A stretch of 64,000 bases of DNA. Source: an uncultured Dehalococcoidaceae bacterium (GTDB taxonomy: Bacteria; Chloroflexota; Dehalococcoidia; Dehalococcoidales; RBG-16-60-22). This document shows, piece after piece, positions 2,361-62,239 of this stretch. The number at the start of each line of letters is the position of its first letter. The first letter of the stretch is position 1. The notes beneath the pieces are model-generated. The model worked only from the letters and a program-made list of their open reading frames with translations, searched no databases and was not told where the DNA came from. The translations under genes were made by a program, and so were the position numbers. Location: contig CAYXWH010000001.1 in assembly GCA_964468755.1 (NCBI GenBank), positions 15,148 through 79,147 on the forward strand, written 5' to 3'.

Positions 2361-3656
2361 ATGGTAGACAACCTACTGGAACAATATACCAAAGCCCAGC
2401 AAAGCAGGCAAGTCTATTTTAAGCGCCGGAAGATAGTTATTGCCGCTGTCAGTAGCTTCATTATACTCACCGCCACATTCTTCGGTCTCTATGGCTACAC
2501 CGACAAAATACTGGGACCTGATGTATCGCTAGACTCCGTCTCCGCCGCCGGGGAATGGGCGATGTTCCATCATTCGCCTTCCCATGCCGGAAGTATCAAT
2601 CCCGGCAGTAGCCCACCCCAGGGCACAATAAAGTCCGTTTTTGCTACCGGCGGCGCTATTTACTCCTCACCGGCAGTAGCCGATGGTATCGTCTATTTCG
2701 GCTCCAGAGATAACAAACTGTATGCCCTGGACACAGCCAGCGGTACCAAACTCTGGGAATTCGAGACCGGTAGCTGGGTAGATTCGTCGCCGGTGGTAGC
2801 CAACGGCACTGTCTATTTCGGCTCAAATGATAGCCGGCTCTACGCCCTCGATGCACGTACCGGTGAAGAGCGGTGGTGCTTCAAGACAGACTATGCTATC
2901 AGGTCGGCCCCGGCGGTAGCCGACGGCATCGTGGTTTTAGGCTCCACTGATTTTTATATCTATGGACTGGATGCCAGCAACGGAACGGAACTCTGGAGAT
3001 TTGAAACCGGAAATAATGTTACCTCGTCACCGGTGATAGTCAATGGCATCGTCTACATTGGCTCAATGGATGGCTCGCTTTATGCCCTGAATGCCGACAG
3101 CGGCCGGCTCCGGCTTCGCTACGAAGCATACTCGCCGCTAGCCGTTTCCCCGGCAGCAGGTAACGGTATTGTCTATTTCGGCAGTCACGGCGGTTTTGTT
3201 TACGCCATTGATGCCATGGCTCGAAACTGGCCCTTTGAAAACAACCTGATACCATATTGGAGAACGCTGTTCATATACGGGGTCCTTCCCCAACCCCCAT
3301 TGCCCTCCGGCTTGTTATGGTCCCTCAATCTGAGAGAAACAATCAGTTCCTCACCGACACTGTCGGGGGATAACCTGTACATAAGCGCGGGACATGAGCT
3401 GTTTGCCATAGATATTCAGCAACAGGAAACGCGCTGGTCATTTGAGACCGGGGATATCATACTTTCCTCGCCGGCAGTAGTTAACAAAACGGTCTATGTG
3501 GGCAGTACTGACGGTCACCTCTATGCCCTGGAGGCGACTACCGGTAACAAGCTATGGGACATCCCTTGCGGAGGCTGGATTAGTTCATCCCCGGCCGTAG
3601 CTAACGGGGAAATCTTTCTCGGCTCGCATGACGGTAACCTTTATATCATCGAGTAG
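2361..3656 (+). CDS. membrane-anchored PQQ-like (BamB/YVTN-type) beta-propeller repeat protein
   Basis: 431 aa with an N-terminal TM helix (IVIAAVSSFIILTATFFGLYG). It carries about 8 repeats of the pattern SSPAVADGIVYFGSxDxxLYALDAxxGxxLW. Confidence 0.75.
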   Translation: MVDNLLEQYTKAQQSRQVYFKRRKIVIAAVSSFIILTATFFGLYGYTDKILGPDVSLDSVSAAGEWAMFHHSPSHAGSINPGSSPPQGTIKSVFATGGAIYSSPAVADGIVYFGSRDNKLYALDTASGTKLWEFETGSWVDSSPVVANGTVYFGSNDSRLYALDARTGEERWCFKTDYAIRSAPAVADGIVVLGSTDFYIYGLDASNGTELWRFETGNNVTSSPVIVNGIVYIGSMDGSLYALNADSGRLRLRYEAYSPLAVSPAAGNGIVYFGSHGGFVYAIDAMARNWPFENNLIPYWRTLFIYGVLPQPPLPSGLLWSLNLRETISSSPTLSGDNLYISAGHELFAIDIQQQETRWSFETGDIILSSPAVVNKTVYVGSTDGHLYALEATTGNKLWDIPCGGWISSSPAVANGEIFLGSHDGNLYIIE

Positions 3657-44388: not shown

Positions 44389-46488
44389 ATGCATGATTTC
44401 TTCTTTAACCCGGAAAGCATAGCGGTTATCGGGGCATCTCGCCAGCCGGGCAAGGTTGGCTATGACGCCCTGAAAAATTTAATAGACGCCAACTACGGGG
44501 GTAAAATATACCCGGTAAACCCGAGCGTTGATAACATCCTCGGACTGAAAACGTACCATAACGTACTGGATATCGAGGATGAGGTTGACCTGGCACTGGT
44601 AATCGTTCCGGCCCCTCTGGTCATCAATACCTTTAAGGCTTTGATAGACAAAGGGGTGAAGGGAGCGGTAGTCATTACGGCCGGTTTCAAGGAGATAGGC
44701 GGCAAAGGGGCGGAAATGGAGCGGGAACTGGTCGAGCTTTGCCGGGGTAAAATCCGGGTTATTGGCCCCAACTGCCTGGGTATCATTGATACCTATGCCA
44801 ACCTTAACGCCTCATTCGCTCCGACCATGCCACGCCAGGGCAAGATAGGGTTCATTTCCCAGTCGGGCGCCATGGTTAGCTCTATCCTTGATTTTGCCGC
44901 CGGTAGAGACATGGGGTTCTCCAAGTTTATCAGCATGGGCAATAAAATGGACCTTGACGAGACACACTTCCTGGAGATTCTCGGCGAGGATAAAAACACC
45001 AGGGTCATCATCGGCTATATTGAGAGTGTCACCGACGGCAAAAAATTCATCGATGTGGCCGAGAAGATATCCAGGAAAAAACCGGTTATTCTCTTTAAAT
45101 CAGGCGTATCCGCGGAAGGAACCAGAGCCGCCTCTTCCCATACCGGGGCGTTGTCCGGTCTCGACAGGGCTTACGAATGTGCCTTCAATAAGTCGGGCGT
45201 AATCAGAGCCAGGTCAATAGAGGACCTGTTTGACTGGGCTGAGGTATTCGCTTCGCAGCCACTCCCAACCGGGAAACGAATCGCCATTGTCACCAATGCC
45301 GGTGGTCCGGGGATAATCGCCACTGACAAAGCCTCCGAGGAACAGCTACTGCTGGCCTCGCTCAGTACCACCACGGTGAAAAGTCTGCAGGAGTTACTGC
45401 CGCCAGCGGCATCTGCCTATAACCCCATTGATGTCCTCGGCGATGCTGACAGTACCCGCTACGAGGGCGTTATCGAGGCAGTGGTTCAGGCTAATGAAGT
45501 GGACGGACTCGTCGTTATCCTGTCACCGCAGGCAAATACTCAAATTGAAGAGACAGCAAAAATCGTATCCAATTTCGCATACACTTCCCCCAAGCCGATA
45601 ATCACCTCCTTCATGGGGCAAGACCGGGTGGCTACCGCGTCCAGTATCTTCAAGAAGGGCAGAGTCGCCAACATCGCCTTCCCTGACCGCGCCGTGCGGG
45701 CTATGTCAGTCATGGCTAGCTACAGCCAGTGGAAGCGGCAGGAAAAGAGTGAAGCCCTTATCAAGAATATCAATAGCAGAAAAGTTGAAGAGTTTCTGAG
45801 AGCGAAGCTGAGCCAGGACAAGATAAAACTGGCCGACTTCGAGGCAAGGGAACTGCTCGAGCTTTGTGATATCCCGACATTACCCACCGCCCTGGCCAAT
45901 ACCGCCGATGAGGCGGTGAGCCATGCCCGTGAAATGGGGTTCCCGGTGGTTATGAAGGTCTATTCCCCCGAGATTTTACACAAGACAGACGTCGGTGGGG
46001 TTAAAGTGGGACTGAGAACCCCGGAGGAAGTGGTCGGAGCCTTTGAAGAAATCATGGTGAACGTCAACAGATATCTCCCCCAGGCGCCGGTAGTGGGCAT
46101 TACCGTGCAGAAGATGGTAGATGGAGGCAAGGAGGTTATTGCCGGCTTCTCCCGCGATCCACAGTTTGGCCCGCTCATGATGTTCGGACTGGGTGGTGTC
46201 TACGTTGAAGTCCTGAAAGATGTCAACTTTGCCCTCACCCCGCTTAGTAAGAGGGAGATAGTAGAGCTGGTATCCGGGATAAAATCCTTCCCGCTGCTGA
46301 GCGGGATAAGGGGCGAAAAAGAAAAAGACCTCGACGCGCTCTACGAAGTTATCGCCACTCTGTCCACTTTGGGAGAGCAGTATCCGGAAATTGTAGAGAT
46401 GGAAATAAATCCGCTGGTGATAAAAGATAAGGGCGAAGGACTGTGTGCAATTGACGGCAGACTAATCTTAAAGGGGGCACCACAATGA
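44389..46488 (+). CDS. ADP-forming acetyl-CoA synthetase (acetate--CoA ligase, fused alpha/beta; NDP-forming acyl-CoA synthetase family)
   Basis: 699 aa. It has a CoA-binding N-terminus PESIAVIGASRQPGKVG, succinyl-CoA-synthetase-like ligase domains and a C-terminal ATP-grasp. Confidence 0.85.
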   Translation: MHDFFFNPESIAVIGASRQPGKVGYDALKNLIDANYGGKIYPVNPSVDNILGLKTYHNVLDIEDEVDLALVIVPAPLVINTFKALIDKGVKGAVVITAGFKEIGGKGAEMERELVELCRGKIRVIGPNCLGIIDTYANLNASFAPTMPRQGKIGFISQSGAMVSSILDFAAGRDMGFSKFISMGNKMDLDETHFLEILGEDKNTRVIIGYIESVTDGKKFIDVAEKISRKKPVILFKSGVSAEGTRAASSHTGALSGLDRAYECAFNKSGVIRARSIEDLFDWAEVFASQPLPTGKRIAIVTNAGGPGIIATDKASEEQLLLASLSTTTVKSLQELLPPAASAYNPIDVLGDADSTRYEGVIEAVVQANEVDGLVVILSPQANTQIEETAKIVSNFAYTSPKPIITSFMGQDRVATASSIFKKGRVANIAFPDRAVRAMSVMASYSQWKRQEKSEALIKNINSRKVEEFLRAKLSQDKIKLADFEARELLELCDIPTLPTALANTADEAVSHAREMGFPVVMKVYSPEILHKTDVGGVKVGLRTPEEVVGAFEEIMVNVNRYLPQAPVVGITVQKMVDGGKEVIAGFSRDPQFGPLMMFGLGGVYVEVLKDVNFALTPLSKREIVELVSGIKSFPLLSGIRGEKEKDLDALYEVIATLSTLGEQYPEIVEMEINPLVIKDKGEGLCAIDGRLILKGAPQ

Positions 46489-47543
46489 TTGAGCTACTCA
46501 TCGGTTCGACAACCAAGTATGCCGGAAAAACGATGGCAGCACTGGCGATTCTCGATTTCTTGAAAAGCAAAGGCCTCAAAATAGGCTATTTTAAACCCAT
46601 CGGCAAGAACTTTGTCCTCAAGGAAAAGGAAAAGGTCGAAGAGGATGTGCTGCTGATCAAAGAGTACTTTGCCCTGGAGGATGACCTGTCCCTCATGTGT
46701 CCCTTTTACCTTGACCGGGCTGACTATATTAACCTCGCTTTGGGCAAGCTGGATAATGCCGGCAGCCGGATATACCAGGCATACCAGGAGCTTAAAAAAG
46801 GGAAGGATGCGGTACTGGTTGGCGGCGGTCAGGACCTGTATGAAGGGTATTCTATCGGTGTTTCCAACACACACTTTTTGGAACGACTTAATATGCCGGT
46901 TGTCATGCTTGATTTACCTGTTTTCGGAGAGGTGAACCTGGATAGAATAGTGGCAGCGCAGGAAAGGGTCGGGGATAAGCTCCGCGGCGTTATTCTCAAT
47001 CACCTGCCGCCCTCGATGGTTGACTTCGTTAACAAGTACTTTGTTCCCTTCCTGGAAGGGAAAGGCATAAAGGTCTGGGGACTGATACCAAGCAATCCGA
47101 AATTAAGTTCACTCACCATTGAAGAAATTAGGGGTGTGCTTGGCGGTGAGGTTATATGCTGTGAAGATAAAAAGGAAGAAAGCGTGGAGACTTTTATGCT
47201 TGGTGCCATGAGTGTTGAGAGTGCCCTTAAATACTTTCGCTCCCAGGCAAACAAAGCAGTCATTACCGGCGGTGACCGGACGGATATCCAGCTCGCCGCC
47301 CTGGAAACACCAACCAAAGTACTGATACTCACCGGTGGGATGTACCCGAACAGCTCCATCATCACCGCCGCCCAGGAAAAGAACGTCCCGATAATGGTGG
47401 CCGGAAATGATACCATGACCACCGTCGAGAAACTGGAGTCGGTAATCCGCAAGGTTAGCATCAGCGGTAAAAGAATCAAGGAAAGTATCGATACTTTTTA
47501 CCAATATGTTGATACCAGCTACCTTGAAGGACTCTTGGAGTAA
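46485..47543 (+). CDS. phosphotransacetylase N-terminal-domain-like protein (BioD/CobQ-like + DRTGG domains, no PTA catalytic domain)
   Basis: 352 aa. It has a GGDRTDIQLAALE (DRTGG-type) block, and its ATG overlaps the ACD stop codon (ATGA at 46485-46488). Confidence 0.6.
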   Translation: MIELLIGSTTKYAGKTMAALAILDFLKSKGLKIGYFKPIGKNFVLKEKEKVEEDVLLIKEYFALEDDLSLMCPFYLDRADYINLALGKLDNAGSRIYQAYQELKKGKDAVLVGGGQDLYEGYSIGVSNTHFLERLNMPVVMLDLPVFGEVNLDRIVAAQERVGDKLRGVILNHLPPSMVDFVNKYFVPFLEGKGIKVWGLIPSNPKLSSLTIEEIRGVLGGEVICCEDKKEESVETFMLGAMSVESALKYFRSQANKAVITGGDRTDIQLAALETPTKVLILTGGMYPNSSIITAAQEKNVPIMVAGNDTMTTVEKLESVIRKVSISGKRIKESIDTFYQYVDTSYLEGLLE

Positions 47544-47691
47544 CCAGCAGCAAGTCAATAGTCTTTATCTGTCCAGAGTAGGGTCTTGTGTCCCCTGCAC
47601 CGATTCAAGGAATAGTGAGTCATGACCATTCGGAAGCGTTTTTTAGCTTTATTTTTACCATTTGTACCCCTTACGCCATTACCAAAGGGGC

Positions 47692-47720
47692 TTGACATTT
47701 GGTAATGATTGTGTTAAAGT
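47692..47720 (+). promoter_or_regulatory. sigma70-type promoter TTGACA-17-TAAAGT of an orphan transcription unit
   Basis: The -35 is at 47692-47697 and the -10 at 47715-47720. Confidence 0.5.
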
Positions 47721-47771
47721 AAATTAAGAAGCTAGGTGGTACACCCTGAATACTGCTTCTGGAGGTGGACT

Positions 47772-47873
47772 ATGAGGCTTCACGGATTATTGGGAGTCTG
47801 GCAAGTAGACAGTGAGGGCCCTGTCGAAAGGCAGGGCGGGCAGAACTCAAGCCCAGCTCAACGAGATAGTTGA
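47772..47873 (+). CDS. hypothetical 33-aa small ORF inside the candidate RNA
   Basis: The ATG lies 5 nt after GGAGGTGG. The peptide is MRLHGLLGVWQVDSEGPVERQGGQNSSPAQRDS. There is no homology evidence. Confidence 0.2.
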   Translation: MRLHGLLGVWQVDSEGPVERQGGQNSSPAQRDS

Positions 47874-47952
47874 GTGGTCAGTCTCGAAAGAGAGATCATC
47901 TTTGGTGGTAATCACCAGAAGTGAGTTGGGTGAGAGCAAAAGGGTGAAATGA

Positions 47953-47992
47953 GTGGAGGTTGCTATAAACAAGCAGCCTCCACTTTTTATTT
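47953..47992 (+). terminator. rho-independent terminator
   Basis: The 11-bp stem GTGGAGGTTGC / GCAGCCTCCAC is followed by TTTTTATTT. Confidence 0.75.
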
Positions 47993-48065
47993 GGGGAATC
48001 CCCCACCATCGCAACGGATTGGGGAAATGAAACGGTTGTTTTACCCGTAGTGCCGGTTACTCAGT

Positions 48066-48344
48066 TTATGGCTCAACCCTGTCCAGCTCGGCGCGTTCCA
48101 GTAACCGGTCATAGTACCGGGCTATGTCATCGTCATATATCTTATCCTTGGCGTCATTCAAAGGTGAGAGGAGCGCCTCACTATATATCTTTTCAATATC
48201 AGGCAGTAACTCCATCAGGCTGAAATTGTCCGACGTATTATCCGAACCATCAGTCTGCGCACGTATCGGTAATGCCGATATCAATATCAGCAAGATTATT
48301 CCACAGACAATTACACCAGAGACGAAGCCGATTATCGTTTTCAC
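48066..48344 (-). CDS. hypothetical membrane-anchored protein
   Basis: 92 aa with an N-terminal TM (IIGFVSGVIVCGIILLILISALPI). No motif is recognisable. Confidence 0.4.
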   Translation of the reverse strand: MKTIIGFVSGVIVCGIILLILISALPIRAQTDGSDNTSDNFSLMELLPDIEKIYSEALLSPLNDAKDKIYDDDIARYYDRLLERAELDRVEP

Positions 48345-48635
48345 ACAGCGCCCCCACCCTATGTATCTAGCTACAGTTTCATTGTGCCACGCAAGTATAA
48401 AGGAACAGATAAAGACTATAAATATCCCATAAAGGTATGATTAATTTTCTATAAAGAAGCCTATACTTACCGGAAATATGGCTGTCCTTGACATTACCGG
48501 CAACCCACGCTTAAAATCTAGAATAGCCGGGTCGTGGTAACTGTTCAGCCCAGACATAATGTGTCAGCCGCGAACCGCCCTACCGTACCGGCAGGACCAG
48601 GTTGTCCCGGTGCCAAAATTCCTCCAGGAGGTAGT

Positions 48636-49328
48636 ATGAGTAAAGTCCGTCTGGTACCAGCTATCCTCACCAATGAACCGGAAGCACTGGAACGGATGGT
48701 GCGCCAGGTAGAAACGTTCACCACTCATGTCCAGTTTGATATCATGGACGGTGAGTTCGTTCCTTCCCGCAGCGTAACCTGGGAACATCTGGCGGCGCTA
48801 TCGACCGCACTAACCTGGGAAGCCCATCTCATGGTACGGGAACCGCAGCGTTATCTTGAAGATTTCGTTCGTTTGGGAGCCAAAAAGATTGTCTTTCACT
48901 ATGAAGCTACCGGCGCGCCAGGGGAGGTCATCTCGCTCGTCAGAAAGCTCGGCCGGCAAACCGGGCTTGCCGTCAACCCCGACACCCCGATATCGACCAT
49001 TGCCCCCCTGGTCGGCGAGGTGGACAGCATTCTATTCATGTCGGTCCAGCCGGGCTACTACGGCAGCCCGTTCATTCCCGAAGTGCTGGATAAAATAAAG
49101 AAATTTCGCAGCAGCTACCCTGATATGGAGATTGGTATTGACGGCGGCGCCAAAGAGAGCAATATCACCCAGATTGCCCGCAGCGGGGTTGATGTTATCT
49201 ACGTGGGCAGCGCCATACTACTCCAACCAAATCCTGGTAAAAGCTACCAACACCTGCTGTCACTTATTAATGATGACATCACTCATACACATCGCCAGGG
49301 GAAAAATAAACCGCCCGGTGGCTGGTAA
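48636..49328 (+). CDS. rpe: ribulose-phosphate 3-epimerase family protein
   Basis: The start is set at ATG 48636, after GGAGG. Family blocks include LVPAILT...FDIMDGEFVP...HLMV...FHYEA...MSVQPGYYGSPF...GIDGG. A TTGACA-18-TAAAAT promoter lies at 48488-48517. Confidence 0.7.
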   Translation: MSKVRLVPAILTNEPEALERMVRQVETFTTHVQFDIMDGEFVPSRSVTWEHLAALSTALTWEAHLMVREPQRYLEDFVRLGAKKIVFHYEATGAPGEVISLVRKLGRQTGLAVNPDTPISTIAPLVGEVDSILFMSVQPGYYGSPFIPEVLDKIKKFRSSYPDMEIGIDGGAKESNITQIARSGVDVIYVGSAILLQPNPGKSYQHLLSLINDDITHTHRQGKNKPPGGW

Positions 49329-49596
49329 TTAACCTTCCCTAAGCCTTAACTTAGCCAGGCGGACTACGCTGAACACAAAGACACCATCCATGGCGATGCC
49401 CCCACTTTATCCCCTTCTTCTTGTATTGAACCTGAGAAAATTCGCCATCCTGGCCCTGATTGCTGCCTTCACCAACAAAGAATAGTTCAGCCAATAAACG
49501 CTCAATTTTAATAAATTATCTATTACCAGCTTAATAAAACCGGGGACAAAACCGCTGCCTTGGCTCAATTTAATCAACAAATTGCTTGAAAAACGG

Positions 49597-62078: not shown

Positions 62079-62152
62079 TGGGGAGTAGTCTAGCGGTAGG
62101 ACAGCGGACTCTGGATCCGTCAGCGAAGGTTCGAATCCTTCCTCCCCAGCCA
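62079..62152 (+). tRNA. tRNA-Gln (anticodon CUG), CCA encoded
   Basis: Manual cloverleaf: acceptor TGGGGAG/CTCCCCA, D arm GTCT/GGAC, anticodon stem GCGGA/TCCGT with loop CTCTGGA, T arm GAAGG-TTCGAAT-CCTTC. Confidence 0.9.
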
Positions 62153-62163
62153 GAAAATCAGAT

Positions 62164-62239
62164 GGCGCATTCGTCTAGCGGTTAGGACACCTCCCTCTCA
62201 AGGAGGAGATCACCGGTTCGAATCCGGTATGCGCTACCA
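62164..62239 (+). tRNA. tRNA-Glu (anticodon CUC), CCA encoded
   Basis: Manual cloverleaf: acceptor GGCGCAT/ATGCGCT (G1-U72 wobble), anticodon stem CCTCC/GGAGG with loop CTCTCAA, T arm ACCGG-TTCGAAT-CCGGT. Confidence 0.9.

Follow-up and report, generated by a model that had tools for sequence, protein, structure and literature searches.

The window analysed here is a stretch of 64,000 nucleotides (nt) from the genome of an uncultured Dehalococcoidaceae bacterium. Its interval 47692–47992, read on the + strand, is intergenic and lies between a + strand operon and a minus-strand gene. Judged by comparison with its relatives, this interval is a real, self-contained gene. It belongs to a family not described before, whose members have a conserved RNA architecture with a tiny conserved coding sequence inside it. 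The features of the unit are listed below; P1–P4 denote helices of the RNA, ORF an open reading frame and SD a Shine-Dalgarno sequence.

47677–47707, no strand assigned: perfect 10-nt inverted repeat CATTACCAAA-N11-TTTGGTAATG, bracketing the −35 hexamer; candidate operator
47692–47720, + strand: sigma-70-type promoter, with −35 TTGACA, a 17-nt spacer with TG extension and −10 TAAAGT; 10 of 12 consensus matches
47728–47992, + strand: predicted primary transcript of ~265 nt, its start placed from the −10 element and its end from the terminator
47728–47781, + strand: 5' gate hairpin, in which the 5' end GAAGCU pairs with codons 2–3 (AGGCUUC) and internal strands pair with the SD
47761–47768, + strand: SD GGAGGTGG, 3 nt before the ATG
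47772–47810, + strand: conserved coding core, codons 1–13, MRLHGLLGVWQVD; codon-periodic variation
47772–47873, + strand: full ORF as present in the window, with 33 codons and a TGA stop, unconserved beyond codon 14
47818–47837, + strand: P1 hairpin GCCCUGUC-GAAA-GGCAGGGC (GCCCUG.../...CAGGGC), starting 7 nt after the Asp13 codon
47848–47860, + strand: 5' strand of P2, a long-range helix that closes a three-way junction through 13 pairs with 47922–47934
47876–47897, + strand: P3, a bulged hairpin GGUC-AG-UCUC-GAAA-GAGA-GAUC; 89% of alignment cells paired
47903–47917, + strand: P4 hairpin UGGUGG-UAA-UCACCA; 97% of cells paired
47922–47934, + strand: 3' strand of P2, UGAGUUGGGUGAG, partner of 47848–47860
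47951–47992, + strand: intrinsic terminator, with a 13–14-bp stem (47951–47985) and a 7-nt loop, then the T-run TTTTTATTT

Relatives of the unit were sought at the level of both nucleotides and protein. The stop-free translation of the RNA was used as a pseudo-protein query for a back-translation scan, which amounts to a search with six degenerate 24-nt DNA probes. The scan of metagenome contigs resulted in 19 loci, namely 15 distinct diverged copies, the same-population contig L014 and three near-duplicates, while the same scan of viral contigs returned no relative. A HMMER search of 1.84 billion protein representatives with the 33-amino-acid (aa) ORF yielded two matches, of which P0007 is a repeat-protein artefact and P0008, on contig L033, a true member of the family in extended form; a protein search with P0008 as query retrieved only itself. 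Diverged copies are thus present on 16 contigs (15 from the metagenome scan and one from the protein search). In 14 of these the unit is complete or truncated by the contig end, and the remaining two, L031 and L032, keep only the small ORF and P1. A covariance model (R1) detected exactly one full copy per locus, at 90–120 bits (100 bits for the window), so that the copy number is one in the window and one in each locus examined. Contigs with near-identical neighbour proteins belong to the same population as the window; the intergenic region is 100% identical in seven of them, which makes them uninformative on covariation. Synteny followed through the upstream DRTGG gene was likewise uninformative, leading to Dehalococcoidales/Chloroflexota reference genomes with 70% protein identity and different downstream genes. 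Neighbour genes and the titles of two reference genomes tentatively place the family in Dehalococcoidales-like Chloroflexota, uncultivated and from sediment. The original prediction for this locus had proposed a search for homologues and a comparison of covariation with codon pattern; with the relatives in hand, a codon pattern is seen in the ORF and structural conservation elsewhere.

The best-conserved part of the alignment comprises the promoter, the SD, the ATG and the 39 nt that follow. GGAGGT is conserved in all 14 rows covering the SD, and its GGT part is invariant in the 15 rows of alignment A2; the spacer to the ATG is ACT, that is, 3 nt rather than the five initially assigned. Among the 15 distinct versions of the 39-nt segment, variable columns number 3, 1 and 10 out of 13 at codon positions 1, 2 and 3, respectively. 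Pairwise codon differences counted in frame were synonymous in 479 cases versus 76 non-synonymous ones, whereas the same count in the two off-frames gave 69/499 and 64/514 (synonymous/non-synonymous). Leu6 and Leu7 are each encoded by five different codons, including TTR/CTN switches. The consensus peptide reads M-[R/K]-L-H-G-[L/I]-L-G-V-W-Q-[V/I]-D, and residue 14 is S, R, C, K or G. From this pattern of substitutions, codons 1–13 are shown to be under strong purifying selection at the amino-acid level. Of the ORF initially proposed at 47772–47873, the coding character (479/76 in frame) has been borne out, but only the first 13 of its 33 codons are conserved.

The end of the reading frame is less constant. 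Among the 18 diverged loci listed, 13 have a stop at codon 15, namely nine TGA, three TAA and one TAG, and one more locus is cut at codon 14. In the window, codon 15 is GAG and the ORF has 33 codons, a length that results from the loss of the codon-15 stop. The corresponding codon is TCA in L019 (ORF of 31 aa) and a sense codon both in L031/L032 (27 aa) and in L033, where the ORF of 56 aa is open across the whole 3' domain. A selenoprotein, which would require UGA and a selenocysteine insertion sequence (SECIS) hairpin, can be ruled out because the codon-15 stops are a mixture of TGA, TAA and TAG, with sense codons in the five loci just described. A programmed frameshift at the stop was rejected from a reading of the sequences, which lack a slippery site, differ in the last codon and soon run into stops in the shifted frames. 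Nor is a second ORF hidden in the 3' domain, where no frame is consistently open across members.

The layout of P1–P4 downstream of the coding core was agreed upon by RNAalifold, by an exhaustive column-pair scan and by single-sequence folds. In the alignment of the 3' domain 94.5% of cells pair, versus 28–42% when the partners are slid, and the 15 compensatory cells were reached by none of 500 shuffles. P1, which the original prediction had described as a GCCCTGTC-GAAA-GGCAGGGC hairpin at 47818–47837, is conserved in a manner of its own. Its six counted pairs are 100% paired and four of them are invariant, in contrast to the other helices, which covary. P1 begins 7 nt after the Asp13 codon in the window and in all 13 diverged loci reaching P1, and 8 nt after it in L031/L032, which retain P1 without the remaining 3' domain; in most relatives the stop codon is positioned 1 nt upstream of P1. 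For P2, 93.8% of cells are paired and two pairs display compensatory changes. The TCTC-GAAA-GAGA element recognized earlier is found at 47882–47893 and forms the inner part of P3; the same bulged hairpin is obtained in single-member folds, with the outer-stem variants GGUC/GAUC, GGUC/GACC and GAUC/GGUC. The stem previously drawn as TGGTG-GTAAT-CACCA corresponds to P4 (TGGTGG-TAA-TCACCA at 47903–47917), in which compensatory changes occur in two pairs, UA to CG in one and CG to UA in the other. A fourth hairpin of the original prediction, CTCAAC-GAGATA-GTTGAG, does exist at 47857–47874, but in this sequence only and without conservation: its 5' arm overlaps the 5' strand of P2, and no more than 3 bp of the hairpin appear in the minimum-energy fold.

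The strong terminator with its T-tract was correctly recognized and has a 14-bp stem at 47951–47985; a linker separates it from P2. In the relatives the terminator stem comprises 13 pairs, with 98% of cells paired and 21 extra pair types. Its 5' arm resembles an SD, being GUGGAGG in the window, and such a purine run (GGAGG, AGAGG, GGGAG or GAAGG) occurs in all members despite the covariation of the stem, which enables the 3' arm to pair with the SD of the small ORF in each of them. Pairing between TGGAGG and CCTCCA of the terminator had been suggested for the window, and all relatives could form an equivalent helix of 5 bp (97% of cells). It may, however, simply follow from the SD-like character of the 5' arm.

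A further element, a 5' hairpin masking the ribosome-binding site, had escaped the original prediction. The first ~55 nt of the RNA form one long hairpin, enclosing both SD and AUG, in every member folded, the most diverged included, and variants of the 5' end that pair with codons 2–3 include GAAGCU, GGAGCU and GGAGCC. For ten members the energies of this gate range from −18 to −23 kcal/mol (z-scores of −1.7 to −4.7), and in the predicted folds 5–13 kcal/mol would be required to hold SD and AUG unpaired. In alignment A6 of the gate 83% of cells pair, compared to 31–50% when the partners are slid, and 11 cells are compensatory (among them a change from C-G to U-A opposite GGUG/GGUA); A6 is a model-based alignment, built after folding each sequence singly, and being fitted to the structure of the model it leans towards it. 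An independent sign of the gate helix is provided by Leu3, the codon of which lies within the closing helix and is always CTT, whereas the other two Leu codons vary freely. The gate is absent from L031/L032.

The complete RNA (47728–47992) folds with −106.4 kcal/mol, compared to −77.6 ± 4.5 kcal/mol for dinucleotide shuffles (z = −6.36; none of 200 shuffles was as good). The opposite strand of the same interval has a fold z-score of −3.6, and the homologue L016 adopts the same fold as the window with a z-score of −5.4.

A consensus scan recovered the near-consensus TTGACA-17-TAAAGT promoter where it had been predicted. In the relatives, all 15 diverged loci that cover the upstream region and the full unit combine a perfect TTGACA with a TAnnAT-like −10 element across a 17-nt spacer; consensus scans scored 11/12 for L016 and 10/12 for L020. 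The inverted repeat at 47677–47707 is a candidate operator for a DNA-binding regulator. As read from the alignment, L015, L017, L023 and other relatives have, in place of this repeat, a TGACAAYTGTCA palindrome that overlaps the −35 element. Since palindromes occupy or bracket the −35 element in both cases, they suggest control by a repressor. Several relatives also have a GCCTAGCTAGGC-like palindrome just upstream of the TGACAAYTGTCA one, which is a candidate operator as well.

The locus does not correspond to any RNA or protein family searched. A scan of the whole window with Rfam 15 at the gathering threshold gave only two tRNAs, situated elsewhere; these are tRNA-Gln(CTG) and tRNA-Glu(CTC), an ordinary tandem at 62079–62239 with starts at 62079 and 62164, ~12 nt apart. 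With the threshold relaxed to E≤10, region 47550–48100 produced four chance matches of 13–17 bits, versus family thresholds of 51–74, and six homologous loci had no Rfam match at E≤1. The failure of the original prediction to match the RNA to a known class is thus upheld by the Rfam/Infernal check. ARAGORN found no tRNA, tmRNA or tRNA-like domain in 47000–48600. None of the seven ORFs of the interval is present in a collection of 15 billion proteins, in which both flanking genes of the same genome are present, in line with the earlier remark that no gene is annotated here; a 45-aa version of the ORF shared no words with any protein. Literature searches with the peptide string and for small-RNA or small-ORF work in Dehalococcoidia returned nothing relevant.

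The neighbourhood of the unit in the window is formed by the following genes.

44389–46488, + strand: ADP-forming acetyl-CoA synthetase, upstream operon
46485–47543, + strand: DRTGG/AAA_26 protein, second gene of the upstream operon
48066–48344, minus strand: 92-aa protein with an N-terminal membrane or signal segment; no Pfam match

The 92-aa protein is 47% identical to its counterpart in L015 and is therefore the product of a real gene. In the main clade (the window, L015–L019, L021, L026, L028 and L029) the RNA is followed by such a convergent gene for a membrane protein of 92–99 aa, the stop of which lies, across these ten loci, 3–74 nt from the RNA terminator (3–30 nt in the main-clade relatives and 74 nt in the window); both convergent genes may share this terminator. 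The convergent gene is followed by rpe wherever the main-clade contig extends far enough. Upstream of the RNA are short-chain dehydrogenase genes in the main-clade relatives with sequence there and the acetyl-CoA synthetase operon in the window. Elsewhere the surroundings are different: the RNA is situated between proS and nusA in L020/L025 and between lgt and the UPF0182 gene in L030, adjoins an insertion-sequence integrase in L022 and precedes a convergent amidase gene in L033. L031/L032 (3001–3110) keep the 13-residue peptide and P1, without three-way junction or terminator, and 21 nt separate their small-ORF stop from the downstream GTG that starts a secreted-protein gene (~370 aa) adjoining a two-component system.

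As the gene neighbourhoods differ between clades, the unit is best described, from these comparisons, as an autonomous gene and not as the leader of a particular operon. The original prediction had regarded it as an orphan transcription unit, and its own promoter and terminator are indeed conserved in diverged relatives across different neighbourhoods. A riboswitch or another cis-regulatory 5' leader, which had been discounted at the outset, was rejected here as well, the following gene (48066–48344) being on the opposite strand and real and rpe having a promoter of its own (11/12).

Some further observations concern the genes nearby. The promoter upstream of rpe is TTGACA-18-TAAAAT (48488–48517). 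The mechanical ORF of rpe spans 48534–49328, starting with GTG at 48534, and encodes 264 aa, while the calls in same-population contigs are of 230 aa, implying an ATG at ~48636. Between rpe and a PadR gene lies a 31-aa hydrophobic ORF, MAMPPLYPLLLVLNLRKFAILALIAAFTNKE (49390–49485, + strand), which is called as a gene in the same-population contigs L006–L009. In L020, positions 3290–3375 between the RNA and nusA hold a mini unit, consisting of a promoter-like TTGCAT-17-TATACT and a 9-bp terminator (3348–3368), just before the ribosome-binding site of nusA; it may be a nusA leader or attenuator.

Taken together, the alignments show that promoter and terminator bound the unit in every relative in which it is whole, that the three-way junction and the terminator covary and that the 3' domain is non-coding. 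Of the possibilities offered at the outset, a small RNA (sRNA), a dual-function RNA or a small-protein gene, this leaves an ORF with a coding signature in an RNA the rest of which is conserved as structure. The reading that we favour, with about even confidence, is that of a dual-function-type RNA or micro-protein gene with gated translation, a 13-residue peptide acting in trans and a structured 3' domain. The RNA would be made at a high level from a promoter that is possibly under a palindrome-binding regulator, and translation of the small ORF would be held down by the 5' gate hairpin. The gate might be opened by the strong interaction between SD and ribosome, by a change in temperature or by a trans-acting factor. 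The 13-residue peptide would then be the effector, a micro-protein acting in trans, and P1, the three-way junction and the terminator would constitute a structured 3' domain that either protects the transcript or binds a protein as a second function at the RNA level.

Several points weigh against this reading. To our knowledge, 14 residues are fewer than in almost any bacterial protein that acts in trans. Loss of the stop in four lineages adds 13–42 unrelated residues, an addition that a free peptide would be expected to resist, and in these lineages ribosomes would run into the conserved 3' domain. A nascent peptide acting in cis would account equally well, or better, for the sharp edge of conservation at Asp13 and for the fixed distance to P1. 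Across the family, the single-stranded segments of the 3' domain lack conservation, and a classical base-pairing seed cannot be made out. With 16 moderately diverged members the coding evidence appears solid, while a mean column identity of 68–70% makes the covariation statistics only moderate and the gate alignment carries the leaning described above. Finally, the transcript ends are predicted.

The foremost alternative, which we consider possible and distinctly less probable, is that the peptide acts in cis as a nascent-peptide sensor. The 13 residues would act in the exit tunnel, pausing or arresting the ribosome with Asp13 in the P site; the stalled ribosome would set the folding, stability or processing of the downstream RNA, and the released peptide would be functionless. 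Conservation from Met1 to Asp13 stops abruptly, residue 14 is free, and unrelated C-terminal extensions of 13–42 residues are tolerated in four lineages, all of which would be expected of such a sensor. Amino-acid-level conservation of short nascent chains is a hallmark of SecM, TnaC and the Erm leader peptides. The spacing between Asp13 and P1 (7 nt; 8 nt in L031/L032) and the invariance of the P1 stem, in a domain where the other helices covary, point in the same direction: if Asp13 occupied the P site, P1 would have its base ~11 nt from the first P-site base, at the entrance of the mRNA channel, and +11 is the known position of the ribosome's helicase entrance. Moreover, the ORF and P1 of L031/L032, with a stop 21 nt before a GTG, form a typical upstream-ORF arrangement, and there the stalled ribosome would instead control the expression of the next gene. 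However, in 14 of the 16 diverged loci no regulated cistron follows the unit, and a convergent gene comes after the terminator in most of them. The column-pair scan found no conserved antiterminator or alternative structure that would mask a downstream SD, the downstream SD of L031 is predicted to be unpaired anyway, and there is no sequence similarity to known arrest motifs. We know of no precedent for a free-standing arrest-peptide RNA.

In a more specific form of this idea, which is doubtful, the unit would be a free-standing translation-sensing RNA: the ribosome, arrested at Asp13 against P1 or not arrested, would determine how the three-way-junction domain folds, how long it lasts or how it is processed. 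What is sensed in the tunnel (a metabolite or an antibiotic, for example) would then be reported by an RNA and not by a downstream protein, and L031/L032 would represent the conventional cis version of the same sensor. If true, this would be something categorically new.

It is improbable that the unit is a leader or attenuator, in which ORF, hairpins and terminator control read-through into the DNA beyond, either antisense into the convergent 92–99-aa gene of the main clade or in sense into nusA or the UPF0182 gene. The order of elements, from a 14-codon ORF behind a strong SD through hairpins to an intrinsic terminator, is certainly that of trpL (14 aa), the terminator abuts the 3' end of the convergent gene in many loci (at the 3–30 nt of the main-clade relatives and the 74 nt of the window), and the downstream gene is co-directional in L020/L025 (nusA) and L030 (UPF0182). 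Nevertheless, no conserved pairing competes with the terminator: the exhaustive column-pair scan gave only 4–6-bp candidates with the terminator 5' arm, mostly GU-rich. The peptide has one Trp and one His, with no tandem or regulatory codon run, and is conserved as a whole rather than at particular codons. In L020 the RNA is separated from nusA by a further promoter-like site and a second terminator, and the neighbourhoods are functionally unrelated.

A type I toxin-like module, in which folding would keep the mRNA of a small hydrophobic peptide translationally inert, is highly improbable. It would account for the sequestration of SD and AUG by a stable 5' fold, for the predicted high stability of the mRNA and its strong promoter, for the hydrophobic core LHGLLGVW and for the potential pairing between SD and terminator 3' arm, which recalls the 5'–3' locks of hok and aapA1. 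Type I toxin peptides are membrane-spanning, usually of 19 aa or longer, and evolve fast. As calculated from the sequence, by contrast, the 14 residues cannot span a membrane, the hydrophobic stretch is of 8 residues and the overall hydropathy is mildly positive. The sequence is almost invariant across diverged genomes and single-copy in the window and in each locus examined, and a consensus scan, which cannot exclude such a site, revealed no promoter-like site on the minus strand within the unit.

Hardly credible, lastly, is a purely non-coding sRNA in which the ORF is untranslated and its conservation stems from constraints on the RNA, for, even though the SD is masked, no gene caller predicts the ORF and codons 2–3 are indeed structural, the three-base periodicity, the mainly synonymous differences (479 vs 76, a ratio that reverses off-frame), the two-position Leu codon switches and the invariant 8-nt SD and ATG all speak against it.

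If the favoured reading of a gated, trans-acting peptide holds, its product would be one of the smallest micro-proteins in bacteria; a cis-acting peptide, on the other hand, would make the RNA the first free-standing arrest-peptide RNA. In either case the locus has been missed by both gene callers and RNA-family scans, yet it is conserved from promoter to terminator across diverged sediment Chloroflexota, and a 13-residue peptide that is near-invariant while 10 of its 13 third positions vary would rank among the smallest conserved bacterial coding sequences known to us. The combination of peptide, translation gate, post-stop hairpin and three-way junction offers a tractable model for the coupling of micro-ORF translation with RNA folding, and two covariance models together with the peptide motif provide handles for finding more members.

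Among known systems, the layout of the unit is most like that of a dual-function sRNA, although at least one defining feature failed for every specific family tested. Like the unit, tmRNA is a structured RNA that has a short internal reading frame; here, however, there is no tRNA-like domain (ARAGORN being negative), and SD and AUG are normal. Type I toxin mRNAs (hok, tisB, aapA1, ibs) share with the unit a small ORF with an SD occluded by the fold of its own mRNA and a compact, stable intergenic transcript that annotation misses, but the present peptide has too few residues and too constant a sequence, the unit is single-copy and an antitoxin RNA was not seen. Arrest peptides (TnaC, SecM, ErmBL/ErmCL, SpeFL) are similar in that conservation of the amino acids extends to a defined codon and gives way to variability after it, with RNA structure just downstream; they differ in that our unit is free-standing, with no regulated cistron in most loci and no similarity in motif. 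E. coli trpL (14 aa) likewise has a 14-codon ORF preceded by an SD of its own, with hairpins and a rho-independent terminator coming after it within ~200 nt, whereas the unit described here has no conserved antiterminator, regulatory codon run or downstream operon, and the peptide sequence itself is selected.

With the dual-function sRNAs (SgrS/SgrT, RNAIII/delta-haemolysin, SR1/SR1P, Spot 42/SpfP of 15 aa and AzuCR/AzuC) the unit has in common a free-standing transcript of a few hundred nt with its own promoter and intrinsic terminator, and a very small ORF combined with conserved RNA structure, both of which are here read from the DNA. It differs from them in lacking sequence or structural homology and any Rfam match, in its host, which belongs to Chloroflexota, and in the position of the ORF, which is located 5' in the RNA and follows a gating hairpin. 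Conservation of the peptide is also far stronger than in the dual-function sRNAs known to us. Since the present family shows no conserved single-stranded seed, any function at the RNA level is more likely to be exerted through structure or through binding of a protein.

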